This document shows, in pieces, positions 20,901 through 38,296 of a DNA stretch of 38,296 nt; within the stretch, counting starts at the first letter, position 1; every line of letters starts with the position of its first letter. Source of the stretch: Alphaproteobacteria bacterium (lineage in GTDB: Bacteria > Pseudomonadota > Alphaproteobacteria > Micavibrionales > CSBR16-224); assembly GCA_006226225.1 (NCBI GenBank), contig SBHI01000085.1:1-38296 (forward strand), read 5' to 3'. Made by a program: the position numbers and the translations under genes. Under the pieces are notes generated by a model. The model made no database searches. It was not told the DNA's origin and saw only the letters and a list, made by a program, of their open reading frames with translations.

Positions 20901-21405
20901 CCGCCGCCCAATAACTTTCCCCCCATGTGTAGACGTATAAATCGCCGCCGACCATAATGATATTATAACCGTTTGAGCCGCCGCCCTGTTCATACAGCAT
21001 TTGCGTGCCGCTGACATCTGCGCCGGTTTCAAACACCATTGCAAAAGACTTTTCGCTGTAGCTGCCGGTATTGATTTCCGTCGCATTGGCAATATCAAGA
21101 TAATCGGATGCGCCGTCAAAAAGGATACCGCCTCTGCCGCCAAAAGCCGTATCTTCAAAAGCCGGACGGCTGCCGCCGCTGCCCGTCGCATCATAATTAT
21201 TGCCGCTGTCATCATCCCAGACATCAATCAAGGCACCATCTGCGGGCTGATCATTCGTCAGTCCGTCACCGTCAACATCCAGCGCATCGAAATGAAAAAT
21301 CGTATTGGCAATCACAGGGAAAGAGGCATCAAGCAGCACACGCTGTTCCAGCGCCATCAGCGTCATTTTTGACGTTTTTGCCTTTTTCTCCTTCCCCAAA
21401 AACAT
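17935..21405 (-). CDS. Large extracellular multidomain protein: LEPR-XLL-like N-terminus, LamG, cadherin-like, DUF2341, LamG, cadherin-like, cadherin, and a Gln/Asp-rich tail
   Basis: 1156 aa.
- N-terminus MTLMALEQRVLLDAS, with no hydrophobic signal peptide.
- Two LamG/ConA-like blocks (aa ~60-283 and ~530-755, e.g. NWHHIAAVYDGTDKILYVDGAEV).
- DUF2341-like block NWIYRQKITVDHDLV...IFYIYYGNAAA.
- Cadherin-like blocks ending DSFSFTVSDAEN and DSFDFTVSDTSG.
- Canonical cadherin-type block VNDFPT...ATDADLPGDSFTYSI...VTIRVSDGNGG.
The exact start is uncertain: the GGAG lies only 1 nt from ATG 21405. Confidence 0.8.
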   Translation of the reverse strand: MFLGKEKKAKTSKMTLMALEQRVLLDASFPVIANTIFHFDALDVDGDGLTNDQPADGALIDVWDDDSGNNYDATGSGGSRPAFEDTAFGGRGGILFDGASDYLDIANATEINTGSYSEKSFAMVFETGADVSGTQMLYEQGGGSNGYNIIMVGGDLYVYTWGESYWAAADRYKSVNLGAVAPNTVYYVTAVHDATDADINNRTFSVSLNGGPAQVLTRVDTLGSHSGNVTIGHSNDSQTPVGDANLGSGSYFQGSIGEFWSWNHALTAQEVSDINDYIVDKWIKGPPQVTTGTAVLGQGGSLVLTTDVLTATDINDPDGGLVYELTALPSNGTLFLSGGALSLGDSFTQQDILDGNISYTHGAGANSTDSFSFTVSDAENVTGPHTADIEISPALDTLTTTSADEGAITAITNAQLSYDAAWYDNNWIYRQKITVDHDLVDADLDDFALLLTESGFGADFWGNVKADGSDIVVTGADGLTKLDRELVAFNTGTQSMQLYTRGDLKAAEDTIFYIYYGNAAASETNQTTTWRNEYGGVWHFESDFDVEISDSSQGAHNGFGRNGFDSSNQVAGAFGSGAEFNNSEYIALDYGLSGNNSLPQISVSGWVNTTVNGTSLSENWSLIDFDRSEFFNVFIHGDGRVGFSTAGTGFGIDDFYSTGVTVNDGNWHHIAAVYDGTDKILYVDGAEVARDANSHGGASLGDGTRYAFIGDGSEATSFDGSRNNVYYDGLYDNLRVYEGTTSGAWVAAEYRNHFSPNTFYQTDTQIVYGGHIIYTVTDAPDTGTLFVDANSNGTLDAGEARGVGGMFTQTDIDAGRLLYTHDGSEVTADSFDFTVSDTSGYTSIVNTKPLTINPVNDFPTAVMLSGTDLPELTAVGKDIATLSATDADLPGDSFTYSIQSDPDGKFTIAGNMLRLMDTVDFETQTNHNVTIRVSDGNGGFFDQAFVMNVLDEIEFNGFIPADDSTTDARPGSTDGLDNIGSGQDGRYFGLLDYLHNNLRPDLFGGESELIRQATDHSRDGFLQAFYGTDGLSQQIRDNINGQDVMPDAQNDALEKVQPQNAAFQRTESGSVPEQTESDAPQNSLPDRLVHNRLFQALYGSQPSQQDAGQENTDAGKLQEQIAYMRSTTQQLSDIADYYQKQSDILKEALLQEVEGG

Positions 21406-21500
21406 ACTCCTTTTTGGACGGAATACCCTTTATCTATTTTAACATGAGCAAAGTTAACGCAGGTTTAATTTACCTTTTTTTATAAATAGTTACGAAGATA

Positions 21501-23627
21501 TCAAAACGCAGCTTCTCTTTCCCAGAATGCCGCCAGACGCTGCCAGTATCTCCAGATCATGCTTTCAGCAGAGCTTTCAAGATGCACAACGCCGCGCACA
21601 ACATGCGGGTTTGGCAAAAAATCTTTCATATCCGCCTCAACGGAGAACTGCGCGTCATAAAGCCCGTAACGTGCCGTTAGGCTTGTTTTCCCGGGCACGC
21701 CATCGGTCGGGATACTGCCGCCGAAGGTGGCCGAAAGCTCCGGCCACAACAGGGCATCACTGCTGCTGTCTGCCAGCTTTTCCAACCGTACAGGAAAAGC
21801 TGAGGGAAAATCCGTATCAGGATAAAACTGCCCCATGCCGGAGAGATAGTTTTTTTCTCTTTTATTTTCATGTATATAGCCGCTAACTCTTAAGCTGTCG
21901 GGCTGCACCAATACTCCCAGACGCTGCGCAGGACTGATCCAGCGCCCCTGATGCAGCTCTGTTGCCACATCACTCACTATACCGGATATATCCGCTGTCA
22001 TTACCAGCCGTTGCTGCTGTTCGCGTAAACCGGACAATCTTTGCGCAGCAGCAGCCAGTTTTTCCGTCAATGGCTCCTGTTCGGGATGGTCGCGGGCAAG
22101 GATTTGCTGCTGATCCCGCAATCTCTGCAGTGATTGATAGTCCAGCTCTGCCAGGGTAATTTGCTGCTGTAATTGTGGTGATTCAATCACCGCCAGAATA
22201 TCCCCTTTTTCAACCTGTTGTCCTGCCGTCATATTGAACGTCGTCAGCTTTCCGGCAACCGGCGCATACAGATCCGTATAAGAGGCGCTATGCAGCACCG
22301 CAGGAATACTGACCGTATGTGTCCGCGGCAATGCCGCCACCATGAATATGCCGATTATCACACAGATGCAGATCAAAGCGCGGAGGGAACGGTATGATTT
22401 TCCTCTCCCTCGCCACCAGACAGTCATTTCCCGCCAGATCGGCAAAGCGATAAACCATGCAATTTCAACAACCATCAAAAAGATATTCAAGGGCGGAAAG
22501 AACAGTGCAAAAACCACCCAGGCAATCCCCAGAAACAGAAACAAGCGGTAGACCCAGAGCGCAAAACCGAAACATTGAAAGAAGCGCCGCTGCCGTAAAG
22601 AGAGATTCTCCGGCATATCATCCTGCCAGCCCCATAAAAACCGTCGCAAGCGCCATTTTGCCCAAAGACAGGTGCGGTCTTGCAGGTTTTCAATGCCCAG
22701 CGCATCGGACAGCAGGTAATAGCCGTCAAACTTCATCAACGGATTTAAATTCACCAGCAAGCTACCTGTCAGAGAAACCAGCGCGACAAAGAAGGCAGTA
22801 CTTTTGCCCAGCCCTGCGGGAAGAACATGCCACAACAATAAGGCGATGGCGGCAAGGCTGATTTCCGTCAGCACGCCTGCCGCAGCAATCACGACACGCT
22901 TGCGCCTGTCGGTCAGCGCCCACGCCCCCGTTGTCTCCGTATACAGAACCGGGTACAGCACAATAAATGCGACACCGATCACCGGCACCTTGACCCCGTA
23001 TTTTGTCGCCGCGTAGGCATGCCCCAATTCGTGCAATGTTTTGACAAACACCGTTGTCAGCACAATCAGTACCGCCCCTTCCCAATTCAAGATATTTTGA
23101 AAGCTGTGCAGGAATTCATCCATACGCTGAAAGGTCATCAACAACCCTGCCGCCAGTAAAAGCAACATCATCAGCAGAAAAGTCTTCGACAAGAACGGCC
23201 GCACAATGGGCAGACTTCGCTCCAGAAAATTTTGTGGTTTAAAAAGCGGAAGTGTTACAAAAAGATAACCATGCAACGCACTCTTCCAAAAGGGTTTTTC
23301 CGCAAGCTGCGCACGACGCCCATGCTGCGCCGATGCTTGCGGTGTCGCCCCTTGCACCAGTTGGTTTTGCACAAGAAAACCCGACAAGTCCCGCACCGTT
23401 TCCGTATCAATCGTCAGCGTTGTTTCCGCATTCACAGCGCGGACAAGATCATCAGCCTGGCCGCAATCCGCCAAACGGCGCAGGCATTCAAACGCCGTCC
23501 ACCCAATCTTATAAAAGCGATGCGCCAGCGGGTCGTAAATCACCCAATGCGGCGCGCCATCCGTACCTGATGCGGTTCTGTCGATTTGCAAATCTTCCCG
23601 CAACAACGGTAAATCGCGTTTTGCCAT
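21501..23627 (-). CDS. Fusion protein: PqqD/RRE-like N-domain + polytopic M50 (site-2-protease family) zinc metalloprotease + C-terminal HlyD-type barrel/coiled-coil domain
   Basis: 708 aa.
- HExxH as LHELGHAY (23019-23033).
- Second S2P motif NLNPLMKFDG (22722-22751), which fits NxxPxxxxDG.
- Multiple TM helices between aa ~145-435.
- N-terminal aa ~25-92 (HWVIYDPLAHRFYKIGWTAFECLRRL...ADDLVRAVNAE...VRDLSGFLVQNQLV) look like a PqqD-type winged helix.
- The C-terminus has a lipoyl-like hairpin (LYAPVAGKLTTFNMTAGQQVEKGDILAVIESPQL) and a Gln-rich coiled coil. Confidence 0.8.
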   Translation of the reverse strand: MAKRDLPLLREDLQIDRTASGTDGAPHWVIYDPLAHRFYKIGWTAFECLRRLADCGQADDLVRAVNAETTLTIDTETVRDLSGFLVQNQLVQGATPQASAQHGRRAQLAEKPFWKSALHGYLFVTLPLFKPQNFLERSLPIVRPFLSKTFLLMMLLLLAAGLLMTFQRMDEFLHSFQNILNWEGAVLIVLTTVFVKTLHELGHAYAATKYGVKVPVIGVAFIVLYPVLYTETTGAWALTDRRKRVVIAAAGVLTEISLAAIALLLWHVLPAGLGKSTAFFVALVSLTGSLLVNLNPLMKFDGYYLLSDALGIENLQDRTCLWAKWRLRRFLWGWQDDMPENLSLRQRRFFQCFGFALWVYRLFLFLGIAWVVFALFFPPLNIFLMVVEIAWFIALPIWREMTVWWRGRGKSYRSLRALICICVIIGIFMVAALPRTHTVSIPAVLHSASYTDLYAPVAGKLTTFNMTAGQQVEKGDILAVIESPQLQQQITLAELDYQSLQRLRDQQQILARDHPEQEPLTEKLAAAAQRLSGLREQQQRLVMTADISGIVSDVATELHQGRWISPAQRLGVLVQPDSLRVSGYIHENKREKNYLSGMGQFYPDTDFPSAFPVRLEKLADSSSDALLWPELSATFGGSIPTDGVPGKTSLTARYGLYDAQFSVEADMKDFLPNPHVVRGVVHLESSAESMIWRYWQRLAAFWEREAAF

Positions 23628-23630
23628 CTT

Positions 23631-24965
23631 CTATACTCCCAGAAAACGGCGCAGGGAAATCAACGGACGTCTGAAAAGGCTGTAAGCCAGAAAACTGCGC
23701 GCACCATAGATCTTTGCCGTCCCTGTCAGGCCGATACGCGCCGCATCATCCTCTGCAAAAGTCGCGCGTATTTTATAAGTCAGCAGGCCGTCGGCATCGA
23801 GCGATGCCTGATAACCAATGGTTCTCAGATGTGCCTGATGTTTTTTCAAAGGTGCCGTATTCAGGAAAAAGGCCGCAGGCGCGGCTTCGTCAATCCGCAA
23901 CATGGCATCAACAGGAACGCGGATCAGCAGCTCCGTATCATGTGGCGGTGCCAGCATCATAACCTTATCACCTGTCCGTACGGGGCGGCCGCGCAAGTCG
24001 TTTTTATCAGAGAAAACCGCAACACCGTCGCGCGGCGCCGTTATCACGGCTTGCGCGAGAAGTTCTCGCGCATAATGTAATTCCTGCTGCCGCAGCGCAA
24101 TCTCCGCCCGCAGCGCCGCCAGCTCCTGCTTCTTTTCCGGCGCTGTGATGGATTCGCGCTCCGCCTTTGCCAGCACAGCCTGTGCCATCGTTTGACGGTG
24201 CTCCGCTTCCGCGACCTGACTGCGCAAAGCCGTATCATCTATTTTTGCCAAGACTTCTCCCTGTTTGACCAACGTATTCGGCTCAATCAGGATATCCGCC
24301 AACATGCCGTCGAAGGGGATGGTGATTACGTAAGGGTCTTTGGCAACAACCTCCGCCGGCGCGGTTACCGACAGCTTGACAGGCCAGCACAGCGCTACCA
24401 ACACGGCCAACAGAAAGACCTTTCCCTTCCAGCTGGGCAGCTTTTTTCCACGCCTCTGTACCAACACTTGTAAACCGTAACCATAAGCATCTGCCAATTC
24501 ATCCAGCAAGACCTTATCCAAGGCTGCAAACGGCTCTTCCCGGTCTATCCACAAGGCACCTGTCACATGACCGCTACGGTCATATAATGCAACCAGTGCA
24601 GCATTGGCGGAACACCATGTTTGCCAGTTTTTTTTATCCGTTCCTTCTACATCTTTCGCATGCAAAATACGCACAGCCTCATCCGACTCCTGCTGCGGTA
24701 AATGCCGTGCAATAAAATCAGACAGCCACAACAGATACGGGCTGTTTTTTTCCATCTCCGTCAAACCGGAAACCGTTTCAATGCCATTTTCACCTGTCCA
24801 GAACAGCGCCTGCCGGTACGGAACAAGGCGGTAAGTTTCATTGACCATCATAAACGCCAGCTCTGCCGCCGTCTTTTGACTGCGGGACTGGCGTTGCAGA
24901 GAAAGAAGCAAGAGCAGCTTTTCAGCCTGTGCGTCTATTTTTTTGGTGTTTTTCTTACTCATCAC
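23631..24965 (-). CDS. HlyD-family periplasmic adaptor with an N-terminal cytosolic GAF-like domain
   Basis: 444 aa. Residues ~1-175 are soluble and GAF-like (ELAFMMVNETYRLVPYRQALFW...ALVALYDRSGHVTGALWIDREEPF). A single TM (VFLLAVLVALCWPV) follows. The adaptor core is ITIPFDGMLADILIEPNTLVKQGEVLAKIDD, a coiled coil, then VITAPRDGVAVF. The start overlaps the upstream gene by 11 nt. Confidence 0.75.
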   Translation of the reverse strand: MMSKKNTKKIDAQAEKLLLLLSLQRQSRSQKTAAELAFMMVNETYRLVPYRQALFWTGENGIETVSGLTEMEKNSPYLLWLSDFIARHLPQQESDEAVRILHAKDVEGTDKKNWQTWCSANAALVALYDRSGHVTGALWIDREEPFAALDKVLLDELADAYGYGLQVLVQRRGKKLPSWKGKVFLLAVLVALCWPVKLSVTAPAEVVAKDPYVITIPFDGMLADILIEPNTLVKQGEVLAKIDDTALRSQVAEAEHRQTMAQAVLAKAERESITAPEKKQELAALRAEIALRQQELHYARELLAQAVITAPRDGVAVFSDKNDLRGRPVRTGDKVMMLAPPHDTELLIRVPVDAMLRIDEAAPAAFFLNTAPLKKHQAHLRTIGYQASLDADGLLTYKIRATFAEDDAARIGLTGTAKIYGARSFLAYSLFRRPLISLRRFLGV

Positions 24966-26400
24966 TCGAATCCTGCGGTGCTTCTTCGGGATTTGCCGCT
25001 ACTTTCAGCCCGATAAAGCCCAACGGGATTTTCTTGCGTGCGGCTCCGACATCAAAAATCGCTTTGCCGCCCATACCCGGCAGCAATTCCTCCTGATATG
25101 ACGACAGCTCAGCAACGATTTCCGCCGTCTGGCTGACAGGATCGACTTTTCCATGGACGCGAATGACTTTCGCCGGATATGTTTTTCCGCTTTCCTCCAC
25201 ATAGACATCAAACGGCGTACCGACATTCAGCCAGCGCAGCCAGACAGACGGCACAAGAAATTGCAGCAGCAACGGTTCATTGGAAGAAATTTCCATCAAT
25301 ACACGCCCGCGTTCCGCATATTCATAGGGGCTTGCCAGCCTGTTGGTCACACGTCCGTCAAAAGGTGCCTTAATCGTGCAAAGCGCGATGCGTTTTTCAA
25401 CCTGTGCCAAACGCGCTTGCTCCTGCGCTACGCTTTCCTGTGCCGCAATATATTCGATTTCCGATAAGGTTCCCAATTTGCGCAATTGCTTTTTGGCTTT
25501 CAGTTCGGCATCCGCCAAACGCAGGGCTGCGCTTTTTTCACTGTAAAGCGCCTCTTCAAGCGCACAGTCGAAACGTGCCAGAATATCTTCGGCGGAAAAA
25601 ACATCACCGTTCTGAAAAGGAAAATCGAGAATCCTGCCGCTCATCAGGCTTGAAATCACCGCCTGTCTACGCGCAATCAGAACGGACTGCACCTCATGCG
25701 TTTCAACAGGCGCTTCGACCACGGGCGGCAATGTTTCCACAGCTGCCGTTTCGACCGGATTATCCCCAGCTGCCGGAGCAATCTGTGCGAAACTTTCAAT
25801 ATCCTCCAGCACTTTCCGCATCGGGTCAGCCTCGTCGGCGATGGGCGGCTCCTGTTTTTTCTCTTCCTTAAGAGAGGCCAGCTGCAGAGGTGTCTTTTCA
25901 CGCGATGAAACGGAGAAGAATAATTTCCGTGCCGCTGCAAATTCGACGGTTTTTTGCTCAAACGCGCGGATATCCCGCGACACTGCCGTGATCGTATGGG
26001 ATGCCGTCTGTATAAAAGGTGCATAAGCTATAACAGCCTGCTGTTTGAGTGTTGTCAAATCGGGCAGCTTCACATCTGCGAGTTTTTGGACTGTCTGTTT
26101 CCGCAGCTTTCCGGCTTTATCTGCCGTCTCCCGCCCCAACTCACCTGCAAAAGCGCCAAATGCTTGCAATTGCTGTCCCGCAAGTGCAGGGGCGCGGCGC
26201 CAATCTTCTTTATTAAATAAAAGCGGGTCGGAAAGCACCAGCATCAATCCCAGCACTGCACCAAACAGCGCGCAGGCAACAAACAACGCACGGGTTTTGC
26301 CCGCAGGTGCTTTACGCTGCGCGCGCCCTTCGGATTTCCGTCCGAACGGTACCGTTTTGTTTTTGCCTCCCGATGCATCAAGCATGGTGTCTCTTCGCAA
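24955..26400 (-). CDS. HlyD/MFP-family periplasmic adaptor subunit with a long N-proximal spacer
   Basis: 481 aa. A basic N-terminus is followed by a TM (ALFVACALFGAVLGLMLVL), a ~180-aa spacer with PVET-type short repeats, and an adaptor core (SGRILDFPFQNGDVFSAEDILARFD..coiled coil..CTIKAPFDGRVTNRL...FDVYVEESGKTYPAKVIRV). Confidence 0.75.
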   Translation of the reverse strand: MRRDTMLDASGGKNKTVPFGRKSEGRAQRKAPAGKTRALFVACALFGAVLGLMLVLSDPLLFNKEDWRRAPALAGQQLQAFGAFAGELGRETADKAGKLRKQTVQKLADVKLPDLTTLKQQAVIAYAPFIQTASHTITAVSRDIRAFEQKTVEFAAARKLFFSVSSREKTPLQLASLKEEKKQEPPIADEADPMRKVLEDIESFAQIAPAAGDNPVETAAVETLPPVVEAPVETHEVQSVLIARRQAVISSLMSGRILDFPFQNGDVFSAEDILARFDCALEEALYSEKSAALRLADAELKAKKQLRKLGTLSEIEYIAAQESVAQEQARLAQVEKRIALCTIKAPFDGRVTNRLASPYEYAERGRVLMEISSNEPLLLQFLVPSVWLRWLNVGTPFDVYVEESGKTYPAKVIRVHGKVDPVSQTAEIVAELSSYQEELLPGMGGKAIFDVGAARKKIPLGFIGLKVAANPEEAPQDSSDE

Positions 26401-26408
26401 CCTTTCCT

Positions 26409-27962
26409 TTACCGATGCGGTGTTTGCAATGCCGCATCAAGCTGTGTCAGGTGATATTGTTTATCGTCTTTTTTTTGTTTTTCTCCGTCTTGTTTTTCGG
26501 CATTCTGCCACACATCCACCCCCAGACTGTTCAGCATGCGTGCATAAGCATGCTGCGCCGCCTGATAGGCGAAAATCCTATCCCATTGCAACAAAGCGTC
26601 ATCCAGCTCTGTGTTTAAAACACTTAAATCACTGCCCAACCCCGCTTCACGCTTGCGTCTTTCGCTACGCAAAATCCTCCGGTAATTATCGGCCTGTTCA
26701 TCCATTTGTGAAAACTGGCTGCGACTTTCCTCCAATTGCTGTTTAGCGACATGAACCTGCGCAATCACCGCAACCAGCAGGGCATAGCGTTGCTTATCAG
26801 ACAGTGCCTTTTTGTTCTTGGCCTGCTCATAGCGCTGCGGCAGCGTAAATAAATCCATCAGCATTGCAGAAAGCGACACCGAGAAATTCGCCCAATCCTG
26901 ATCAGATAAAAAAGAGTTCGTATCTTTGTTTAGCCCCAGAAAAAAGCGCGCACCGGGCAGAACTTCCAGCACCGTCGTTTTGATTTCGCGCAGAGCAATG
27001 CGCTCTTTCAAAAAAGCTTCTTTCACTTCCGGACGGTTCATCAGAGCCGTGTCCTGCAGCTTCTCCAGATCCTGTTCCAGCTTGGGCAAGTCATCCGAGG
27101 TCAGCCAGTTTTTTTGCGGTAACTGTAATACAATTTTATCGTCAGGCGATAATCCGATCAGTGTTTTCAGCTCCAGCATCGCCCGGGCAACATTACGGCG
27201 TTTCTCCGCCAGTGTATTGCGCTTACGCAGCAGCTCCTCTTTTTTCTGCAAGCCGCTTTCATAGGGAATAATGCCTTTTTTGATAGCTTGCTCCAAATCC
27301 GCCAGCCGCTTATCCGCCTCTGTCAGCAGCGCGGCATGTTTGGATGACGTTTCCTGTTCTGCCGCCGCACGCCAGAAGGCGACATAAACATCCTGCGCCA
27401 GATTTTGCAGAACTTTGCGGCGGCGCTCATGCGCGATCAATACACGGTCTGATGCCGTACGCGCATGGGCAACGGTGACTGCAGCATCCAGAATATTCCA
27501 ACTTGCTTCCAATTGCGCCGTGCGGCGGTGCCTGTCCGTTGAAATCGATGGCTCCAGCGACTGCATCCCCGTCAAAGCCGACCGGCTTGATGATGCCCCC
27601 GTATTACTGCGCCCCTGATAGGATGCACCGGCTTCGATTTTCGGCAGCAGGCTTAATTTTTCGATATTATATTCACCGCTGCGGATCAGCTCTTCCATCA
27701 GCGCGACCTGCACATCCAGATTGCGCTTCACGGCCAAATCAAGCGCATCATCCAATGTTATCTGCAAAATGCCATCATTACCTTGCGCGACTGCCTCCAA
27801 ATCACCGCGCAGCCTTTCAGCATATTCTTCTTCCCCCATAGGGCTGGTTGCCGTTGAACAAGCAGCCAAAAGCAGCAATCCGGACAACAGCAAAAAGAAT
27901 TTGCTAAGATGACACAGGTTTATACGGGAACAAAGAGTCATAGAGACCAAAATTTCCAACAA
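26409..27962 (-). CDS. TolC/NodT-like outer-membrane factor lipoprotein
   Basis: 517 aa. Lipobox LLLLAAC, then two tandem OEP-type helical repeats (LDDALDLAVKRNLDVQVA..., LEKLQDTALMNRPEVKEAF...). The start may be M8 (27941). Confidence 0.8.
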   Translation of the reverse strand: MLEILVSMTLCSRINLCHLSKFFLLLSGLLLLAACSTATSPMGEEEYAERLRGDLEAVAQGNDGILQITLDDALDLAVKRNLDVQVALMEELIRSGEYNIEKLSLLPKIEAGASYQGRSNTGASSSRSALTGMQSLEPSISTDRHRRTAQLEASWNILDAAVTVAHARTASDRVLIAHERRRKVLQNLAQDVYVAFWRAAAEQETSSKHAALLTEADKRLADLEQAIKKGIIPYESGLQKKEELLRKRNTLAEKRRNVARAMLELKTLIGLSPDDKIVLQLPQKNWLTSDDLPKLEQDLEKLQDTALMNRPEVKEAFLKERIALREIKTTVLEVLPGARFFLGLNKDTNSFLSDQDWANFSVSLSAMLMDLFTLPQRYEQAKNKKALSDKQRYALLVAVIAQVHVAKQQLEESRSQFSQMDEQADNYRRILRSERRKREAGLGSDLSVLNTELDDALLQWDRIFAYQAAQHAYARMLNSLGVDVWQNAEKQDGEKQKKDDKQYHLTQLDAALQTPHR

Positions 27963-29880: not shown

Positions 29881-30558
29881 ATGCCCGCAATTTTTGCCTT
29901 ATGGTTTTCAGATATGCCGGATTTCACAGTTTTCGACAAAACAACGCTGATTACAATTGCCAGCGCAGCAGCAACATTTATCGCCGTGCTGGGGATCGGA
30001 CTGGCAGTCATTAAAGACAAAACACGGATACAGAAAAAACGGCAAAAAACGCGCGGCGGCAAAGGCTGGCAAAATGCCCGTCAAAGCCTGCGCCATATGC
30101 CGTGGAAACGACTGCGCTTTTCTTCTGTCAAAAATCTCCGCAACATCCTGATTATTCTCTTCCTGCTATCAATCATCCTCGTGGGCAAAGTGCTGGAACC
30201 ATCCCCCCCGAAAAAAAGTGGCAAAAACGTAGACAGCTCGATTTTCTGCCATTCTCCCTACATTATTGACGGGGATACTTTCGACTGTGTCGGCACACGC
30301 ATCCGTCTGATGGGAATTGATGCGCCGGAAATGCCCGATCATTGCAGGCCCGGACGACGCTGTACAGAAGGAGACCCTTTTGCCGCCAAAAAATATCTGG
30401 AATCTCTGGCGACAGGATGGGTGAAATGTCGTGCAATCGAGATTGACCATTACGGCCGCACCATTGCCCGCTGCAAGGTAAAAGATGTTGACCTTTCCTG
30501 CGCCATGATCGCCTCCGGTCACGCCGTCCGGCGTTACAGCAGTATTTCCTGCCCTTAA
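29881..30558 (+). CDS. Thermonuclease (staphylococcal nuclease-like) family protein with N-terminal membrane anchor(s)
   Basis: SNase motifs are present: YIIDGDTFDC, IRLMGIDAPEM, DHYGRTIARC. There is a hydrophobic segment ILIILFLLSIILVG. The start is uncertain (29881, 29911 or 30097), and none has a clear SD. Confidence 0.65.
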   Translation: MPAIFALWFSDMPDFTVFDKTTLITIASAAATFIAVLGIGLAVIKDKTRIQKKRQKTRGGKGWQNARQSLRHMPWKRLRFSSVKNLRNILIILFLLSIILVGKVLEPSPPKKSGKNVDSSIFCHSPYIIDGDTFDCVGTRIRLMGIDAPEMPDHCRPGRRCTEGDPFAAKKYLESLATGWVKCRAIEIDHYGRTIARCKVKDVDLSCAMIASGHAVRRYSSISCP

Positions 30559-30566
30559 ACCGGCAA

Positions 30567-33500
30567 TCAGAAACTGCCGACGATATTAAAGAAAACACCG
30601 CGGCTTTGGTAATCCAGATTGGTCAGATCATCCGAGAAGTCGGTAAAATTGTAGCCGATGCCGAGTTTAACATTCTCGTTCACATGTCTGTACACACCGA
30701 CCAATCCGCCGGCTTTTGCATCGCCGGCATCTTTCGCATCAAGATAGCGCAGTTCACCCGTTACATCCCATTCATGCACCACATGCCAATCGGCGCGTGC
30801 CACACCCAGCCATGCGGTACTGCTAAACCACGGCGTGCCGGATGCCGTCGTGTCGTGCAGCTCGCCAATGCGGTATCCCAGCTTGCCGCCCACTGACAGT
30901 TTCGGACACAGGTCATAAATAAAATCACCCGAGAAGACATGACTGCGCTGCTCATATCCGTTCGCAGCGCCCGTGCCGGAAACCTGTCCCGGGCTACCTT
31001 CATCAGACAAATAAGTATAACGCACCAACGCATTTAACTTGTCATTTAACACGGGACGGTAACCAAAGCCCAGATTCAGCTCGGTAAAATTCGCATCCGT
31101 TGTGCTGCCTGTGCCTGCCTCGCTTAGTGCGACATCCAGCCCACCCGAGAAACGCCAGTCTTCCGAAACCTGATAGACCAATGTGTTTTTCATCAACCAT
31201 GATGTCCTGTCGCCGGTTGTATTGCCGCTTTCATCACGCCATTCCAGCGTACCGCCATATTTAACTTTATCGCGGGTATAGCCCGCAGAAATTGAGGCTG
31301 CAATCCGGTCAAGATCACCCGTTGCCGGGTCGGAGGTTTTACCCGTTTCGAATTTACCGCCCCATGTCCAATAATCGCTGGCGGCAAGATCCAGCCCCAT
31401 CGCATGCATAATGCCGGATTGTCCTTGCTGTGCATGCAGATAGCGCTGCTCGGAAAACACAGACAGATTATCGGTATAACGGGAACGCGTCCCCGCCACC
31501 AGCATATTACTGCGTCCGTTATTGCCGGTATCGGTACGTCCCGTATCAGAAAGATAATTTATATAATGGCTTGTGCGGTCATCAACACGGTAATCCAGCC
31601 CCGCTTTACCGCCGAGGCCGTCGTCGCCGCCTGTCAGCTCGGCGCTGATTTCCAGCCGGTCATTCAGGCGGAATAATCCGCCGCCGCCATAACGGTCATT
31701 ATCCAGACGAGTCCTGTCACGGTGCAATGTTGTTTGCGCCAAGCCATAAATTTCATAACGTCCCGGCGTGCCCTCTGTCGTCAGCGGCGCATGACCCAGT
31801 TTGACAATGGCATCCGTCCTCTCACCCGTTTGCGCCAATACAGTACTGCCACCAGCTGCCAGAGCCGTATCACGGTCGTCATGACGCGCACCGACTGTGA
31901 GGGTTGTTTCCTGCGACAGTGCGTAGTCAACACCTGCCTCAACTGCCTTGTAACTGCCGGTTGTCTTGCCTTCCTTAAAGTCGGCCTTCGCCGTAAAATC
32001 CAGCCTGTCCGATACCGGTAGACGCAACATGCCACCCGCTTGTTCGACACCTTCATTCGTCAACTGCCCCGGCGCAGAAAAACCGTTTTGCCTGTTCAGC
32101 CAGTATCCCGACAATGTGCCGCTTTGCCCGCCATCCGTCAGTTCGGCAAAATCGGCGGCGATTTCGACACGGTGCGCGTCTGCCGCAATACCTGCAGTTC
32201 CCGTCTGCGGGATTGCGCCGAAATTGAAACCGCCATTCTGCGACGACATGCCGCCTGTTCCCGGGCCGTCAGAGCGCGCGGTTTCCAGCTTCAGATAAGT
32301 GCCGGGTTTGTAACGCAATGTCATATCCGCCCCCAGCAGACTTTGCTGCCGCCCCGTCCCTTTTTGCTCATAACCCGATGCGCCAATCCGCAAATGATCA
32401 TTCACCCAATGACTGGCACGGCCGCCTTTGGTCATGTTATCGACGGAAGAGACACCGGGCGTAAATTCATAGCCTGCGACCAGATAAACAGGGTTACCGC
32501 CCTGCGTACCATTTAGAATAAAAGCGGAAATCCCTGCTGTTGATTCCAGCGGCGTGCTTAAAATGACACGCCCTTGAATATAATTGATGTCGTAATCCTG
32601 CCCGTAAATCAGCGTCTTGGATTGCAAGACAATGCCGGATTCCTGATCACGCACTTCAACACGCAGCCTTTCCGATCCGATAACAATATCCTGATTGCGC
32701 AGATAATAAAGCGATCCACCGGTACCGCGGAATTCTTCAATCGCGTCCAGCGTTCCGGGATCAGCGGCAAACAGGTCAAGTTCCGTACGCTTTTCGCCAA
32801 AGGCGGTTGTCGTCATACTGCCGTGATGTGCATTCGCCCCATAAAGCGTGCGGCTGAAATTCATCAGATCTGTTCCCGTCAAACGGGTCTGGAAACTGCC
32901 CCACAGCACCTTGGTATCGTTTTTTTCAACCTTCACATAGAATTTTCCTAAAGTCGGCGCATCCTCGATCAAGGTGGAATCATCGCCATAAACCGGATAA
33001 TAGGCACTGGGATCAAGGCGGCGCAGCAGACTGCGGGCATCTTTTTCATCGAATTGCGAGAAAATATCTTCAAGCGGCTTTTCCTGCGTATCGGCGCTGG
33101 AGGTCACTTGCCAGCCATTCTGTAATTTACCTTTGGTGTAATAGGCCAAACGCCCTTCGGTATAGAGTTTTTCATTATAGCGGTCACTGTTCTTGCCTGT
33201 AACCAATGCCGCGGGGCCTTTGACATCATTCAGCCCCATTGTCAGGTCGGCAATACCGACCGTAAACCACTCATGTGACGGAATATCGATATGGCGACTG
33301 AATTCCGTACGACCACCATCCGTTTTTTCACGCACGACATCCACGCTGTGATCGCCCGCAGGCAATATCTGCTCTACGGCAAATTTTCCGTTCCCATCCA
33401 CCGGAACAGACTGCCCCATCACCAGTACCTTTTCCCCTGCCGCAATATCCGCACCATTGACCGTCACAGTACCGCCATGAACGGGAATATTGCGCAGCCC

Positions 33501-34715
33501 GATATGGTTTTCACCATATCCCGTCAATATTTCGCGTGTTTTACCTTCATCCGGCTGGGCACCGCGCCGCGCATCCAGAATATCCAGAATTTTCGGTGTC
33601 GTTTCATCAAAAAGGCCTTTTTCATCATACACGCGCAATAGATATTTCACCGCTGCCAATTCATTATCCTGCGGCACATTCCACGTGACTTCGCCAAAGC
33701 CTTCATCAAAAGGAACAACGGCAAGAGGCGGTGTATCCGTTGATGCGTCTTCTTTAAAAATGCGCAGCTCCGCTTTTCTGATAAAGGCACGGTAATTCGT
33801 ATAAGGAAGAAAAGAGACAACCTCCCCCCTGACCGCACCTTCCGGCCAAACCGTCACATTCAGCACGGGCTCAACCTCCAGCCCGTCAAAACGCAGCTGA
33901 ATCTCCGCTTTTTCAAGCGCAATATCCATGCAGCGCATTACATCTGCACTATTGGGCACATCCTCTCCCGGTGATACCTCTCCATCAATGGAAATACGGA
34001 ACGGCAGGTCGCTATCCTGCGCAGGTGCATCTTTACACACGCCGGTTTGTGGGACGCTATAACTCGCCGTTTTATACCAAACACGCAATTCCGCCCTGCG
34101 GTCATCCGCCATGCAATCCTGATAATCTTTTTTTGCCTGTTCCGGCGTTGCCGCACCTGTAATATCAAGGCGGCAATCCGTTGTTGTCGCAGTATCTCCC
34201 ATGCCCGTTATATGCACGGGAATCTCCTGCCAGCCGTCCAGCTCTTTCAAATAAGCGGCAACCTCTTTCGCACGGGCAACGGATAATGCGTAGTTATCGG
34301 TGTAATATTTACGCGACTCATCTGATAGAGGCTGCTTGTCGGTATAGCCGACGATCTCGGCATGTTCGATTTTCCGTCCCTGTAATTCCTCAGCAAGATT
34401 TGTCAGGGATTGTTTCCCCGCATCCGACAGCTGATGGCGCCCTGATGCAAAATAAGGCACGTCAGCATTCCCCAGTTTAGAAACTTCAGCCTTTTTCCGC
34501 CACAAGACCAGTACTTCATCCGCAGGACGGCGGCGCTCCGTATCGGGCGGCACAACACGTTTTACAACCCGCGAAACCATCGCCGTTTTCCCCGGCTGCT
34601 CCAAAGGTGGGCAGGTATCGCACTCCTCACCGATCGCGGGAGAATTTCCCGCAAGGAAGACGATGGCAGCACCGGCAAGAAGCAAACGTCTGAAAGATGA
34701 ACGGGAGAAAACCAT
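30567..34715 (-). CDS. Large outer-membrane protein: signal peptide, N-terminal OmpA/MotB-like peptidoglycan-binding domain, long central region, C-terminal beta-barrel
   Basis: 1382 aa.
- Signal peptide LLLAGAAIVFLAGNSPA.
- OmpA-like block (34077-34463): FASGRHQLSDAGKQSL...IVGYTDKQPLS...DNYALSVARAKEVAAYL...DDRRAELRVWY.
- The last ~600 aa show alternating amphipathic Gly/Tyr-rich strands and end in the OMP signature FFNIVGSF.
- The start ATG shares a base with the upstream stop (TGATG). Confidence 0.75.
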   Translation of the reverse strand: MVFSRSSFRRLLLAGAAIVFLAGNSPAIGEECDTCPPLEQPGKTAMVSRVVKRVVPPDTERRRPADEVLVLWRKKAEVSKLGNADVPYFASGRHQLSDAGKQSLTNLAEELQGRKIEHAEIVGYTDKQPLSDESRKYYTDNYALSVARAKEVAAYLKELDGWQEIPVHITGMGDTATTTDCRLDITGAATPEQAKKDYQDCMADDRRAELRVWYKTASYSVPQTGVCKDAPAQDSDLPFRISIDGEVSPGEDVPNSADVMRCMDIALEKAEIQLRFDGLEVEPVLNVTVWPEGAVRGEVVSFLPYTNYRAFIRKAELRIFKEDASTDTPPLAVVPFDEGFGEVTWNVPQDNELAAVKYLLRVYDEKGLFDETTPKILDILDARRGAQPDEGKTREILTGYGENHIGLRNIPVHGGTVTVNGADIAAGEKVLVMGQSVPVDGNGKFAVEQILPAGDHSVDVVREKTDGGRTEFSRHIDIPSHEWFTVGIADLTMGLNDVKGPAALVTGKNSDRYNEKLYTEGRLAYYTKGKLQNGWQVTSSADTQEKPLEDIFSQFDEKDARSLLRRLDPSAYYPVYGDDSTLIEDAPTLGKFYVKVEKNDTKVLWGSFQTRLTGTDLMNFSRTLYGANAHHGSMTTTAFGEKRTELDLFAADPGTLDAIEEFRGTGGSLYYLRNQDIVIGSERLRVEVRDQESGIVLQSKTLIYGQDYDINYIQGRVILSTPLESTAGISAFILNGTQGGNPVYLVAGYEFTPGVSSVDNMTKGGRASHWVNDHLRIGASGYEQKGTGRQQSLLGADMTLRYKPGTYLKLETARSDGPGTGGMSSQNGGFNFGAIPQTGTAGIAADAHRVEIAADFAELTDGGQSGTLSGYWLNRQNGFSAPGQLTNEGVEQAGGMLRLPVSDRLDFTAKADFKEGKTTGSYKAVEAGVDYALSQETTLTVGARHDDRDTALAAGGSTVLAQTGERTDAIVKLGHAPLTTEGTPGRYEIYGLAQTTLHRDRTRLDNDRYGGGGLFRLNDRLEISAELTGGDDGLGGKAGLDYRVDDRTSHYINYLSDTGRTDTGNNGRSNMLVAGTRSRYTDNLSVFSEQRYLHAQQGQSGIMHAMGLDLAASDYWTWGGKFETGKTSDPATGDLDRIAASISAGYTRDKVKYGGTLEWRDESGNTTGDRTSWLMKNTLVYQVSEDWRFSGGLDVALSEAGTGSTTDANFTELNLGFGYRPVLNDKLNALVRYTYLSDEGSPGQVSGTGAANGYEQRSHVFSGDFIYDLCPKLSVGGKLGYRIGELHDTTASGTPWFSSTAWLGVARADWHVVHEWDVTGELRYLDAKDAGDAKAGGLVGVYRHVNENVKLGIGYNFTDFSDDLTNLDYQSRGVFFNIVGSF

Positions 34716-37700
34716 CAGTTCCCTCCCTTACCGGGGGTCACGAATTCCTCCTCCACCAGTAATTCATGACAGCAGCTATGCTGTTTCCAAAGTTTTGTAA
34801 CCTCGTCCGATACGGCCTTCAGGCGTTCACGCGCCAGTTTTTCGTCTTCCTGTTTTGCCGTATAAGCCAAACGCAGCACAATCGGACGATCACGCATTTT
34901 TTCCAGCACCTGTTCCAGCTGTTTGCGGAAATCAGGCTTCAGCACGGTTTTACCGGACAGGAAGGCATCATCGCGCATATCGACCCGCACCACTTTGTGA
35001 ATGGCTGCACCGAAATTAATTTTTGCCATCTTGCCGCGTGTTGCACGGATGATGCGCGGATTTTCTGTCGTGACACGATATCCTGTCGGCAAACTGCGCT
35101 CATCCAGCTTCATGATGAAATTACTGCCGCGCTCTTCATCCGGAATGGCGGCACAGGCAACATGAAAACGTCCCTGCGCATCCGTCGTTACCAATAGACC
35201 GTTCACAGTTGCCAGACGCACGGCCGGAATGCCCGGTTCCCCTTCGTCTTGATAACCATTGGCGTTTTTATCATCAAAGACCTTGCCGATCAGGTCAGAA
35301 CAGTCAAAGACCGGATCGGGCACAACGCGCACCGTTGCCGTTGCCACATTGGAAGCAGCATTGGCAAAGCCCGGCGGCACCAGATTATTGATTGTCACAA
35401 CACTGTTCACATACTCGCCCGGCTGTACACCCGCACCGACAACAAGGATCATTTTCAATGTCCGTGTCGCGCCCGCCGCGATGGTCAAATTCGGCCAGGT
35501 CAGCGTCCGGTTCACCACAGTCGGCTCACTCGCCACACCGTCCAGTGTGGCGCTACCCGCCTTATATTTGAAGCCCGGCGGAATGGTATCAATGATATTG
35601 AGATTGCTCAAATTCGCCGCCAGTGTATTGCGTGCCGTGATCGTATAAGGCACAAGCTGCCCGACACTAACATTCGTCATCGGTGTGGTTTTGGTCAAAA
35701 CGATCGCTGTATCCAGAACGGGATCCAGCGGGATATGGTTGTTGACCAGATTGGCCGATGTCGCCGGATCGATGACAAAGCTGAAATAATGCTGCGTGGT
35801 TGCCTGATCGGCAGGCGTAAAGGCCGCCGTTGTCGCCGGACAGGCAGCAGGGTTATGCGCAGGAGCTGCCAAAACGGGTGCCAAAGCGCTTGCCTGCACT
35901 TGTGTGGGATCAGGCGGCGGCGGCGAGACGGTCAGCGTATTCACACAAACCGGGATAATGACCGAGGGCACCGGAATATAAGCACCGGGATAACTGGAAA
36001 TTGACAGCGTATAGGTTCCCACAGGTGCGGCAGGCGTCAGCAAAAACTGGTAGAGGCCATCTACCGCCGTCGTCACCGTCGCCGTACCGCCGACCAAATG
36101 AACGGCAGGGTTAAATCCGGCAGGCCCCGCAATTGTCACATCCGCCCCGGCAACCGGCAGACGGGTAATGGAATCATAGACCACACCGGCAGGATCCAGC
36201 GGCAGACTTTGCTGGATAATATTATCACCTGCCAGCAGCGACAGATTGCTCAATGTACCGTCACCGCTGGAAACATCTGCCCCTGCCGGATTACCGGTAT
36301 TGGTACCGCCGTTACTGGTAGATGCACCCGTATCACGCGTTCCGTTTACGGGCACAATGCCTTGTTCATTCGGAACGGCACGGCCATATACCAATCCTGT
36401 TGTCGGCTCACGGAACTGGATTTTATAACCTGCACCGGGCGCGATACCGGAAAAAGCGTAAGTGCCGTCCGCTGCTGTCGTCGTCGTACTGACAACGATA
36501 TTGTTGAACAGCAGCTCGACCGTCCAGCCCTGCACAAGCGTTTCACCACCATCAATCTGACGGTCATGGTCATAATCGCGCCAGATCGTACCACTGATAT
36601 CTGCGACATTGGCAATCGCCACCGTATCGGTATCGGTATTATTACCGTCAAAACCGGGCGGCTCCCCGCCGCCGGAGATAACGACCGTATTAACCAGCAG
36701 CTGCCCCGCCGTGCCACCCGCAACAGCCACCCGCAACGTAATCGGGTTACCGTTGCCGCCCGCCGCAATGACATCCGTACTGGTGCAGGTCACCGTTGTT
36801 GCGCCGATTGCCCCGACGCAGCTCCAGCCTGTCCCCGTCGCAGGGGCGGCCACCGTCATACCAACCGGCAGCGTATCAACCACTGTCACTGTACCGGTGG
36901 TTGCCACTGTTCCCACATTCGAGGGTGTGATGGTAAAGACACCTGTCGTTGACCCTTCCCCGAAACTGGAGGGAGCGTGGCTTTTTGAAATCGTCAAATC
37001 AGGTGCCGCGCCCGGAACCTCGGCAAAATTATTACCGCCCGATACCGTATTCGCACCTGTCAGGTCAAAACCTGCGATGCGGCTGGTTGTCGCGGTCGGG
37101 TTACTGGCCACACCGCCGGTGCTGCCTGCGGTCACAATTCCGTTGGTCGTGCCTGTGGCCTGCGCGGGTTGATCCAGCGTATAGGTTCCCGGCGGCAATC
37201 CGGTAAAGCTGTAATCCCCGTTTGTATCCGTCATTGTTGTTGCGTTAACGGGATTGCCGTTGATATCCGTTCCCGTCAGATTGATCGTCTGGTTTGACAG
37301 TCCGTATTCCGTGCCGTTCAACACACCGTTATTGTTGTAATCAAGGAAGACGTTTCCAAGCGCGCTGCGCCCGTTGATGATCTCGGCAAAATTATTATCG
37401 GCAGCTGTTGTATTTGGCGGCAGGATAATGGTCGCGATCACGCTTGGCACTGTTGTGGGGTTGGTGGGCGTTCCCGCCGTACCGCCATTTGCCACTGCTC
37501 CCGCCGTCGTAATACCGTTCGATGTCCCAGCAGGCTGGTTCGGCTGGCGCACTGAATAGGTCGCAGGCTGCAATCCGGTAAAGCTATAAGCGCCTGCGGC
37601 GTCTGTCGTATCTGTTGTGATGACGGTATTCCCCGCATCCAGCAACTCGATCAATTGTCCTGCAATCCCCGTATCGCCGCCATTCTGGATACCGTTGTTA

Positions 37701-38296
37701 TTGGCATCCTGAAAGACTGTTCCCGAAATGCTGGAAAGAACGATTTCCGCGAAATTATTTCCGGTCGATCCGCTGACTTCGCCGCCGGCACCGTCATTAT
37801 TCAGAATGATATTGATAATCTGACTGCTTGTCGCCGTCGGGTTCGAAGCCGTTCCCGCCGTTCCGGTACTACCGTTGACACTGCCGATGACCCCAGCTGT
37901 TGTTATGCCGTTACTGGTTCCCGCAGGCTGGGCATTCTGGCAAACGGAATACGCACCTCCCGCAAGGCCGGAGAACAGATAATTACCCGCCGCATCCGTC
38001 AATTGCGTATCCAGCAAGGCACCGCCACAAGTCGCACCGCTATGCAGCTCGACCGCCTCACCGGCAATCACCGTATCCGTCCCTGACTGGAACACACCAT
38101 CAGGAGCGACATTATTATCACGGAACATTTTACCGGAGATAAAGCCCAGCGTACTGACCGACAACACCGCATTCGCAGGTTGCTGGTTGTTGCCCAGATT
38201 GGTCTGCAAACGTCCGGCCGGAATATTATTTGTATGATCGCCCGGCGTATTCGCCGTAATATCAACACTGATCGTACAGCCACCCGCCGGAATTTG
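34715..38296 (-). CDS. Giant repetitive surface protein (SdrD-B-like / Cna-B-type repeats plus two DUF11 conserved-repeat domains); 5' end lies outside the window
   Basis: The ORF track begins at TTG 38209. I translated the frame upstream to 38296 and found no stop (..QIPAGGCTISVDITANTPGDHTNNIPAGRLQTNLG..), so the gene is N-terminally truncated here.
- SdrD-B motifs: ISGTVFQDANNNGIQNGGDTGIAG...TDAAGAYSFTGLQPATYSV.
- DUF11 blocks: DLTISKSHAP...VTVVDTLPVGMTV and VLTKTTPMTNVSVGQLVPYTITARN...IIDTIPPGFKY. Confidence 0.85.
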   Translation of the reverse strand, partial: QIPAGGCTISVDITANTPGDHTNNIPAGRLQTNLGNNQQPANAVLSVSTLGFISGKMFRDNNVAPDGVFQSGTDTVIAGEAVELHSGATCGGALLDTQLTDAAGNYLFSGLAGGAYSVCQNAQPAGTSNGITTAGVIGSVNGSTGTAGTASNPTATSSQIINIILNNDGAGGEVSGSTGNNFAEIVLSSISGTVFQDANNNGIQNGGDTGIAGQLIELLDAGNTVITTDTTDAAGAYSFTGLQPATYSVRQPNQPAGTSNGITTAGAVANGGTAGTPTNPTTVPSVIATIILPPNTTAADNNFAEIINGRSALGNVFLDYNNNGVLNGTEYGLSNQTINLTGTDINGNPVNATTMTDTNGDYSFTGLPPGTYTLDQPAQATGTTNGIVTAGSTGGVASNPTATTSRIAGFDLTGANTVSGGNNFAEVPGAAPDLTISKSHAPSSFGEGSTTGVFTITPSNVGTVATTGTVTVVDTLPVGMTVAAPATGTGWSCVGAIGATTVTCTSTDVIAAGGNGNPITLRVAVAGGTAGQLLVNTVVISGGGEPPGFDGNNTDTDTVAIANVADISGTIWRDYDHDRQIDGGETLVQGWTVELLFNNIVVSTTTTAADGTYAFSGIAPGAGYKIQFREPTTGLVYGRAVPNEQGIVPVNGTRDTGASTSNGGTNTGNPAGADVSSGDGTLSNLSLLAGDNIIQQSLPLDPAGVVYDSITRLPVAGADVTIAGPAGFNPAVHLVGGTATVTTAVDGLYQFLLTPAAPVGTYTLSISSYPGAYIPVPSVIIPVCVNTLTVSPPPPDPTQVQASALAPVLAAPAHNPAACPATTAAFTPADQATTQHYFSFVIDPATSANLVNNHIPLDPVLDTAIVLTKTTPMTNVSVGQLVPYTITARNTLAANLSNLNIIDTIPPGFKYKAGSATLDGVASEPTVVNRTLTWPNLTIAAGATRTLKMILVVGAGVQPGEYVNSVVTINNLVPPGFANAASNVATATVRVVPDPVFDCSDLIGKVFDDKNANGYQDEGEPGIPAVRLATVNGLLVTTDAQGRFHVACAAIPDEERGSNFIMKLDERSLPTGYRVTTENPRIIRATRGKMAKINFGAAIHKVVRVDMRDDAFLSGKTVLKPDFRKQLEQVLEKMRDRPIVLRLAYTAKQEDEKLARERLKAVSDEVTKLWKQHSCCHELLVEEEFVTPGKGGN
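37022..38140 (-). repeat. Three tandem ~115-130-codon coding repeats inside the giant surface-protein gene
   Basis: Each unit starts with (I/L)(S)G.(V/M)F.D.NNNG-type SdrD-B sequence and contains QP(A)GT(S/T)NGI(T/V)TAG. Each ends in NNFAE(I/V), at aa 24-155, 161-275 and 284-396 of the track ORF. Confidence 0.7.

Follow-up and report, generated by a model that had tools for sequence, protein, structure and literature searches.

A giant repeat protein and a very large OmpA-domain barrel protein: a widespread two-gene module, probably for a surface fibre

The window analysed here is a stretch of 38,296 nucleotides, the entire contig SBHI01000085.1 (C101) of a 229-contig, 2.19-Mb alphaproteobacterial assembly (GCA_006226225.1). 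On the minus strand at one end of it, the 3' half of a giant repeat gene is followed immediately by a gene for a 1382-aa protein that combines an OmpA-like domain with a very large barrel region. We conclude that the two genes are a real, widespread and apparently undescribed surface-fibre module, in which the barrel would act as both conduit and anchor for the giant fibre, the pair making up a self-contained outer-membrane mounting unit; we put the probability of this reading at about 0.58. An earlier note on this DNA had suggested a possible dedicated surface-display module. That interpretation is supported as far as computation reaches, and the note's description of the gene pair was right in all details that could be checked. 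The case is built in silico, from the domain content and signals of the two proteins, the adjacency, overlap and natural fusion of their genes, a conservation gradient along the chains and a barrel-type fold.

Gene pairing, distribution and fusions

The giant's stop codon and the barrel protein's start codon overlap (GGGAGGGAACTGATGG): TGA at 34717-34715 and ATG at 34715-34713 have base A34715 in common, just as the note had read from TGATG at 34713-34717, and a strong Shine-Dalgarno sequence, GGGAGGG, lies at 34727-34721, 5-6 nt 5' of the barrel start. Related junctions are similar. Among 84 of them, 67 overlap (ATGA in 48, TGATG in 17, an 8-base overlap in 2), 8 have a gap of no more than 12 nt and 9 a longer gap, so that the genes overlap or lie within 12 nt of each other in 75. 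We propose, from these junction sequences, that translational coupling keeps the giant and the barrel protein synthesized together. The junction can also form an 11-bp hairpin (34703-34727, minus strand), flagged as terminator-like, which pairs the Shine-Dalgarno sequence with barrel codons 2-4 (UUUUCUCCC) and places the AUG in or beside its 3-nt loop. As a coupling device this hairpin was rejected: its energy is no better than that of shuffled sequences (z -0.47), and it is not kept in four relatives' loci (L002, L003, L005 and L006).

Homologues of the barrel protein are numerous. A word-indexed search returned at least 1687, an exhaustive search of 1.84 billion cluster representatives returned 1497 at E<=1e-3, and at least 596 carrier genomes came up in a scan limited to a single genome for each species. 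Carriers belong to the Alpha-, Beta- and Gammaproteobacteria, Desulfuromonadales, Syntrophia, Nitrospirota (Nitrospiraceae) and Acidobacteriota, and those in culture, several of them non-pathogenic, include Stutzerimonas stutzeri 24a13, Pseudomonas kuykendallii NRRL B-59562, Marinobacter salexigens and species of Microbulbifer, Methylobacillus and Polaromonas. One of these, Microbulbifer sediminum TT37 (NZ_JAJSAP010000001.1), has two copies of the module about 16 kb apart with identical junction sequences (L052 and L053); in the Microbulbifer clade the barrel proteins, at about 1700-1790 aa, have room for additional domains at the N-terminus.

Synteny was read in the 80 best genome loci, 78 of which have DNA upstream of the barrel gene, the other two starting at a contig end. 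At every informative locus (78/78, different species) a homologue of the giant's last 337 residues, its tail module, stands directly upstream of the barrel gene. The same adjacency is found, amid wholly different flanking genes, in Desulfuromusa kysingii and in an alphaproteobacterial metagenome-assembled genome whose barrel protein is without an OmpA domain. In a balanced sample drawn from the phylum, 18 of 401 genomes (16 of 212 genera) have the barrel. Strong full-length matches to the tail occurred in 10 of the 401 genomes, and the barrel was present in all 10; the tail lies just upstream of it, on the same contig and strand, in 7, which is everywhere the assembly permits the comparison, and one of these 7, G350, is a fusion. 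The two families are thus syntenic elsewhere, one of the points on which the earlier note had staked its proposal. Weaker, CLIPPER-only matches in genomes without the barrel span only the first two-thirds of the tail query. In family f38, many small genomes (1.4-2.9 Mb) encode 1,600-2,300-aa proteins that match only the tail's CLIPPER domain and part of its SdrD_B domain (E 1e-21 to 1e-29); they have no barrel gene except for G333, which has the full module. This pattern looks like a different handling of CLIPPER giants.

No third gene is conserved with the pair: the largest family in the flanks, a promiscuous PAS-type sensor, occurs at 14 of 82 loci. Judged from these neighbourhoods, the functional unit appears to be two genes and self-contained. 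Overlapping genes are by themselves no proof of shared function, and the barrel could in principle be an ordinary porin or transporter that happens to share an operon with an adhesin. Against 78/78 synteny across several phyla, recurrent fusions and a full-length tail module never seen without the barrel in the 401-genome sample, such a coincidence is scarcely credible.

Natural fusions of the two proteins make up 17 of the best 150 representatives. They are 1949-6889 aa long, include named Deferrisoma examples, such as the 2662-aa WP_461395022.1, and carry the barrel at the C-terminus; BLAST of the separate pieces gives the order giant tail, OmpA domain (in some), beta-sandwiches, barrel. Those lacking the OmpA domain have linkers of about 15-60 residues after the tail, and no second signal peptide was found inside the fusions. 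One was confirmed in DNA: an uninterrupted frame of 2079 codons encodes it in a same-class genome scoring 100% complete. Because fusion occurs at none of the 80 best genome loci, we regard the split form as the commoner one. The existence of natural gene fusions implies that giant and barrel probably work as one unit, and it is independent sequence-level support for a physical partnership. Because some fusions join the giant's C-terminal end to OmpA domains, which bind periplasmic peptidoglycan, that end would lie on the periplasmic side or in the lumen. Two further fusion candidates were set aside: P0216 (3637 aa) is merely a longer giant, and P0218 is a giant with a true OmpA domain at its end.

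Linkage, fusion and a conserved tail would fit binding without transport equally well. The giant might be exported by other means, such as type II secretion or release and recapture, with the barrel protein as a docking site for its C-terminal module; the OmpA domain does point to an anchoring role, and the passage of immunoglobulin-like (Ig-like) domains through the barrel is unproven. We nevertheless consider a pure anchor unlikely. No third gene is conserved with this self-contained module, and it occurs in very different genomes in which a common separate exporter is not evident. In the fusions, moreover, passenger and barrel are one chain with a periplasmic OmpA domain between them, so that the chain must cross the membrane somewhere, and the size of the barrel is hard to explain by anchoring alone. 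A barrel that both conducts and holds the giant remains the reading we prefer.

The giant protein and its conserved tail

Pfam recognizes in the visible fragment of the giant five SdrD_B domains (E 1.2e-56, 190 bits), two of DUF11, now CLIPPER (E 2.4e-11, 44 bits), and a DUF7933 fragment (E 7.3e-10, 39 bits), all above cut-off; NCBIfam matches to the two proteins of the pair are MSCRAMM-type repeats and the OmpA domain only. The fragment aligns with residues 1394-2584 of a 2586-aa relative, P0124, at 89% identity, and close relatives, whose barrel proteins are 87-91% identical to this one, have giants of 2586-2591 aa. The missing 5' end, which the earlier note had wanted recovered for its signal type, came to light when the genome was searched with a relative's giant: the N-terminal 1188 codons lie at the end of another contig, C60, of the same assembly (L008:1492-5055). 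The assembly break falls inside the repeats, and about 200 residues are lost between C60 and the contig end at 38296. As read on C60, the giant begins with a standard Sec signal, MRFHHKFKKILGCLILLCGLFWSETAYA, with cleavage predicted before ALGAS.

The full-length relative P0124 has nine DUF7933 domains (424 bits over 9 copies), followed by SdrD_B and CLIPPER domains. A profile scan of it found no two-partner secretion (TPS), autotransporter, RTX/type I (T1SS), type V (T5SS), type IX (T9SS) or sortase-type sorting domain, and no distinct adhesive domain at the N-terminus. With its signal peptide and tandem CLIPPER, SdrD_B and DUF7933 domains, the giant has what defines the stalk of a fibrillar adhesin. 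In the passages covered of a survey of such proteins (PMC12617251), these three families are isopeptide-bonded stalk domains, or predicted to be. From its sequence, the giant appears to be a stalk of antibody-like domains some 2,590 residues long.

Conservation along the giant is very uneven. In P0124 coordinates, mean identity is 31-44% over residues 1-2000, rises to a peak of 78% in a 100-residue window that coincides with the penultimate, SdrD_B-like domain, and drops to 36% in the last domain. The tail module matches 2386 proteins, the best 120 of them mostly at 52-85% identity (one at 39%). An AlphaFold2 (AF2) model of these 337 residues has a confidence score (pLDDT) of 90.4 and resolves three domains (Table 1). 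Every strand of the CLIPPER and SdrD_B domains is present in the model, and the last domain has block means of 85-95. Foldseek matches to the tail model are Gram-positive pilins, SdrD and the solved CLIPPER domain 9ifr (TMt 0.72); they are dominated by the two Ig-like domains and uninformative on the last.

That last domain had tentatively been likened to an OmpA-like fold. The likeness is moderately supported, by the modelled fold, by an hhalign comparison of the tail profile with the partner's OmpA profile (probability 57%, E 1e-4, 59 columns) and by the relative P0218, which has a canonical OmpA domain at the same position. It is not proven: the hhalign alignment has a 14-column gap exactly at the GHxD...N peptidoglycan-binding loop, and the domain has no Pfam match even at E 10. 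It is best called a degenerate OmpA relative, probably unable to bind peptidoglycan.

An OmpA-like tail, and relatives that end in a true OmpA domain, would also suit a giant that never leaves the periplasm and, with the OmpA-barrel protein, tethers the outer membrane to the wall. All inter-domain elements beside the barrel are of periplasmic types, and among the better fold matches of the barrel is Deinococcus SlpA, a connector of outer membrane and wall with a peptidoglycan-binding N-terminus and a 30-strand barrel. We find such a scaffold improbable. Some 25 tandem Ig-like domains would, estimated from domain size, exceed the width of the periplasm several-fold; the first 2,000 residues diverge rapidly, in the manner of exposed surfaces; and CLIPPER, SdrD_B and DUF7933 arrays are described, in the passages covered of PMC12617251, in cell-surface stalks.

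The barrel protein

Export of the barrel protein is predicted to begin with a Sec signal (Table 1). The OmpA-like domain that the earlier note had placed at 34077-34463 was found by Pfam inside that span; NCBIfam assigns it to OmpA domains of the TssL, YfiB and MotB types, and its profile matches structures of PomB, MotB, OmpA and Pal with E-values down to 7.8e-12. In OmpA and Pal structures the stem peptide of peptidoglycan is contacted by a conserved Asp (in TD) and a conserved Arg (in RA). The domain keeps both, in YTD and ARA respectively (GYTD...NYALSVARAKEV), and it is a predicted peptidoglycan anchor. Ahead of it, a peptide at residues 40-75 (~34491-34598) contains a conserved GK...S.V...PPxTExR motif, which the fusions retain in the stretch that links the giant's tail to the first beta-sandwich.

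The middle of the protein, about 500 aa, had been left unassigned. AF2 now divides it into two Ig-like beta-sandwiches and the first part of the barrel, which begins at about residue 482. The second sandwich has a weak Pfam match to Glucodextran_B (3.4e-4, below cut-off). The model was computed for residues 186-1382 with a 60-sequence alignment, and in it the last 34 strands (from residue 743) follow one another uninterrupted, each of 8-17 residues, with short connections. Foldseek against the Protein Data Bank (PDB) returned for the barrel model only large outer-membrane barrels (TonB-dependent receptors, Deinococcus SlpA, MtrB and LptD), all with template-modelling (TM) scores <=0.33 and probability 1.00. 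The fold class is clear at the level of the model, and no solved relative was found. The C-terminal region is thus predicted to be a barrel, as the note had supposed, and a very strand-rich one.

Families were of little help here. In the barrel region no Pfam or NCBIfam family reached threshold, sub-segments gave nothing meaningful at E<=10, and an OMP_b-brl match at residues 1137-1241 was sub-threshold. Sequence and profile searches of the PDB with the barrel protein found the OmpA domain only; a match to calsequestrin was spurious. The terminal Phe signature noticed earlier (FFNIVGSF) is real, and its motif is conserved across the 60 homologues: in the ending GVFFNIVGSF the G, F and N are invariant in the alignment, and the majority-rule consensus ends in GKF. 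With its signal, long strands and terminal aromatic residue, the protein is predicted to be an outer-membrane beta-barrel and a substrate of the barrel assembly machinery (BAM).

The most conserved part of the barrel, residues 536-685, is partly of low confidence, with pLDDT <50 at model residues 371-405 and 487-496. A conserved and poorly modelled insert of ~75 residues follows the first 6-7 strands (model residues 471-534). Ushers carry their plug at such a position, and the barrel protein also has periplasmic Ig-like domains; it might be a plugged pore of the chaperone-usher kind, with the giant as terminal or only fibre subunit. This we regard as very improbable. No PapC/FimD, chaperone or pilin family was detected and no usher stands among the top 50 Foldseek matches; in the window and at all 82 loci the giant gene is single, and no gene for a further subunit or a chaperone accompanies it; and the tail's CLIPPER and SdrD_B domains, modelled complete, lack no strand.

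Proposed mechanism, known systems and neighbouring genes

In the reading we prefer, conduit and anchor combined, both proteins would enter the periplasm via Sec. The 1382-aa protein would be inserted in the outer membrane as a very large beta-barrel, using its BAM-type C-terminal signal; its N-terminal OmpA domain would fasten it to peptidoglycan, and its two Ig-like sandwiches would be suspended in the periplasm or placed at the mouth of the barrel. The giant (~2,590 aa of DUF7933, SdrD_B and CLIPPER domains, with predicted isopeptide bonds) would be held by its conserved C-terminal module. The degenerate OmpA-like last domain would stay periplasmic, next to the N-terminal region of the barrel protein, the strongly conserved CLIPPER/SdrD_B pair would occupy or cross the lumen, or sit at it, and the variable stalk of ~2,200 residues would project from the cell surface. 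The logic would be autotransporter-like, carried out by parts not homologous to those of autotransporters. We infer the physical contact, the side on which the tail lies, the passage through the lumen and the surface exposure; the two conservation peaks, the giant's penultimate domain and barrel residues 536-685, are candidates for the contact surfaces, as far as alignments can tell.

Several points weigh against this reading. Linkage and conservation are all that suggests contact between tail and barrel, and the OmpA likeness of the tail depends on the hhalign probability of 57%. The AF2 barrel model is only moderate (mean pLDDT 72.7, pTM 0.55), and the predicted strand number is a range, ~36-45, that may describe a single or a double barrel, with an open or a plugged lumen. 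The block of tail, OmpA domain and sandwiches between passenger and barrel is unlike any known autotransporter. The reading also has to explain how, with no source of energy, a chain of some 2,200 residues in stable Ig-like domains would get across the membrane.

A disulfide tether between giant and barrel protein was also considered. A Cx(2-12)C pattern occurs at the barrel N-terminus in 38 of 83 relatives, mostly where the giant has its CC pair near the C-terminus, and the co-occurrence of the two is strong (28/7/10/38, Fisher p 1e-7); of 9 fusions read across the junction, 8 lack both pairs. With phylogenetically independent pairs, 3.8 changed the same way, 0.6 the opposite way and 4.6 were unchanged (median p 0.25, from ~10 independent contrasts). 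The tether between the giant's CC and the barrel's Cys pair is only a lead, which fails phylogenetic control.

A bolder version of the mechanism is possible and we hold it only tentatively. It would make the module a distinct outer-membrane display pathway of diderm bacteria: a single-chain barrel at least as large as SprA, stapled to peptidoglycan by its OmpA domain, would pass a folded or partly folded chain of isopeptide-type Ig-like domains and retain it by a CLIPPER/SdrD_B plug and an OmpA-like stopper, possibly locked by a disulfide between the giant's CC and the barrel's CxxC. SprA, with 36 strands, is the largest solved single-chain barrel.

The note's phrase that the pair is analogous to, and distinct from, two-partner secretion and inverse autotransporters describes it well: no T5SS, usher or TPS family was detected, and the giant, which has a Sec signal, carries none of the known sorting domains. 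Type V families (PF03797, TpsB/Omp85, POTRA, the TPS domain) are absent at E<=0.1 from both proteins and from the full-length relative. As in type V secretion, whether by autotransporters (Va) or TpsA/TpsB pairs (Vb), a Sec-dependent passenger is joined to a dedicated outer-membrane barrel in the same gene (here the fusions) or an adjacent one, no ATPase or inner-membrane component is encoded, and fusions have the passenger N-terminal and the barrel C-terminal. The differences are a barrel of ~36-45 predicted strands rather than 12-16, a gene order with the passenger first, OmpA and Ig-like periplasmic domains between passenger and barrel, and a passenger of isopeptide-type Ig-like domains instead of a beta-helix. 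Inverse autotransporters (Ve: intimin, invasin) likewise have a domain that binds peptidoglycan in the periplasm (LysM in their case, OmpA here), on the N-terminal side of a barrel by which an Ig-like stalk is displayed. Their passenger, however, lies C-terminal to a 12-strand barrel in the same chain, whereas here it has its own gene upstream or is fused to the N-terminal side of the barrel protein; the present barrel is several-fold larger, and there is no match to the intimin/invasin family.

Chaperone-usher systems (PapC/FimD) resemble the module in dedicating a large barrel with periplasmic Ig-like domains to an Ig-fold fibre, and in an insert at the plug position. Usher, PapD-like chaperone and pilin signatures are absent from the Pfam and NCBIfam matches; the module has no chaperone gene, pilin subunits or usher family or fold match, and its fibre is one 2,590-aa chain. 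Deinococcus radiodurans SlpA also combines an N-terminal cell-wall-binding domain with a very large C-terminal barrel, and in MtrAB(C) a partner protein inside a 26-strand barrel links periplasm to surface. These better Foldseek matches of the barrel (7zgx and 8agd, TMq 0.27-0.28; 6r2q_B, TMt 0.33) have low TM-scores and share only the general fold class. SlpA further differs in its S-layer homology (SLH) domain in place of OmpA, its trimeric state and its lack of a fibre partner, and the Mtr partners are cytochromes.

Closest in domain content are the CLIPPER/SdrD_B fibrillar adhesins (Protein Sci 2025, PMC12617251): in the passages of that survey covered, the giant's domain families are isopeptide-bonded stalk domains, also in Gram-negative adhesins. 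The sorting domains named there are Por_secre_tail, CHU_C and LPXTG, and those passages make no mention of a partner barrel; the 337-aa tail with the barrel would be a further sorting route. The pair was not described in the literature searched, of which coverage was incomplete and that survey the only relevant paper.

Current accounts of how Gram-negative bacteria display giant adhesins invoke type I, V and IX secretion and ushers. The module fits none of these by sequence or fold, and yet it is common. If the barrel does conduct and hold the fibre, the pair would represent a new ATP-free route by which very large, mechanically stable proteins cross the outer membrane, the barrel would be a candidate for the largest single-chain beta-barrel, and the module would supply the missing sorting route of many Gram-negative CLIPPER/SdrD_B fibrillar adhesins.

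Table 1. Features of the module and of neighbouring genes in the 38,296-nt window
Feature	Position	Strand	Basis or remark
Giant repeat gene, 3' half	34715-38296	minus	1193 codons visible; 5' end open at contig edge
Best-scoring SdrD_B-like (CnaB-type) repeat, 1 of 5	37460-37732	minus	Pfam PF17210, residues 189-279 of the giant fragment (P0002)
337-aa C-terminal module: CLIPPER, SdrD_B-like, small alpha/beta domain	34718-35728	minus	Signature accompanying the barrel gene
CLIPPER (DUF11) domain of tail	35333-35704	minus	Pfam PF01345, residues 865-988; AF2 beta-sandwich, tail residues 9-135
Penultimate SdrD_B-like domain, candidate contact or lumen domain	35000-35299	minus	AF2, tail residues 144-243
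Last domain, degenerate OmpA-like beta-alpha-beta-alpha-beta	34739-34996	minus	AF2, E245-251, H265-277, E283-290, H296-316, E324-330
Cys-Cys pair near giant's C-terminus (HSCCHELL)	34769-34774	minus	Kept in >=70% of 121 tails
Gene junction: Shine-Dalgarno GGGAGGG, then TGATG stop/start overlap	34713-34727	minus	Sequence reading
1382-aa OmpA-domain/giant-barrel outer-membrane protein gene	30567-34715	minus	Open reading frame and translation
Sec (signal peptidase I, SPI) signal, ~residues 1-29	34629-34715	minus	Predicted by reading MVFSRSSFRRLLLAGAAIVFLAGNSPAIG
CDTC cysteine pair, mature N-terminus of barrel protein	34611-34622	minus	Sequence
OmpA-like peptidoglycan-binding domain, residues 88-182	34170-34454	minus	Pfam PF00691, 44.4 bits vs cut-off 27.2, E 2.2e-11
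First beta-sandwich, ~residues 272-380	33576-33902	minus	AF2 strands 87-195 (model numbering), block pLDDT mostly 80-93
Second beta-sandwich, ~residues 405-478	33282-33503	minus	AF2 strands 220-293 (model numbering), pLDDT 80-90
Strand-rich barrel region, residues 482-1382	30570-33272	minus	45 DSSP strands in AF2 model
Most conserved barrel stretch, residues 536-685, including DPSAYYPVYGDDST and EEFRGTGGSLYY	32661-33110	minus	66-72% mean identity vs 35-60% elsewhere
C-terminal beta-signal-like VFFNIVGSF, terminal Phe	30570-30596	minus	Translation
SNase-like nuclease, 225 aa, convergent	29881-30558	plus	Directly downstream of barrel gene
Hsp70/MreB-like actin-fold protein, 526 aa	28482-30062	minus	Directly downstream of barrel gene
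TolC-like OEP protein	26409-27962	minus	
Two HlyD-type adaptors	24955-26400 and 23631-24965	minus	
Peptidase_M50/HlyD-like fusion, 708 aa	21501-23627	minus	
Cadherin_3/Laminin_G protein, 1156 aa	17935-21405	minus	
RimK-like ATP-grasp protein with RLAN N-terminal domain, 495 aa	14213-15700	plus	Unrelated to module

The Hsp70/MreB-like and SNase-like genes that follow the barrel gene are kept in the closest relatives (L003 and L004), not in distant ones. Further downstream lies an export-like cluster (17935-27962, minus strand) of TolC-like, HlyD-type, M50/HlyD-like and cadherin-like genes; no ABC transporter was found among the open reading frames scanned. In L002 and L003, too, the module is followed by this set, and the cluster may form an export system of its own, for the cadherin-like protein.

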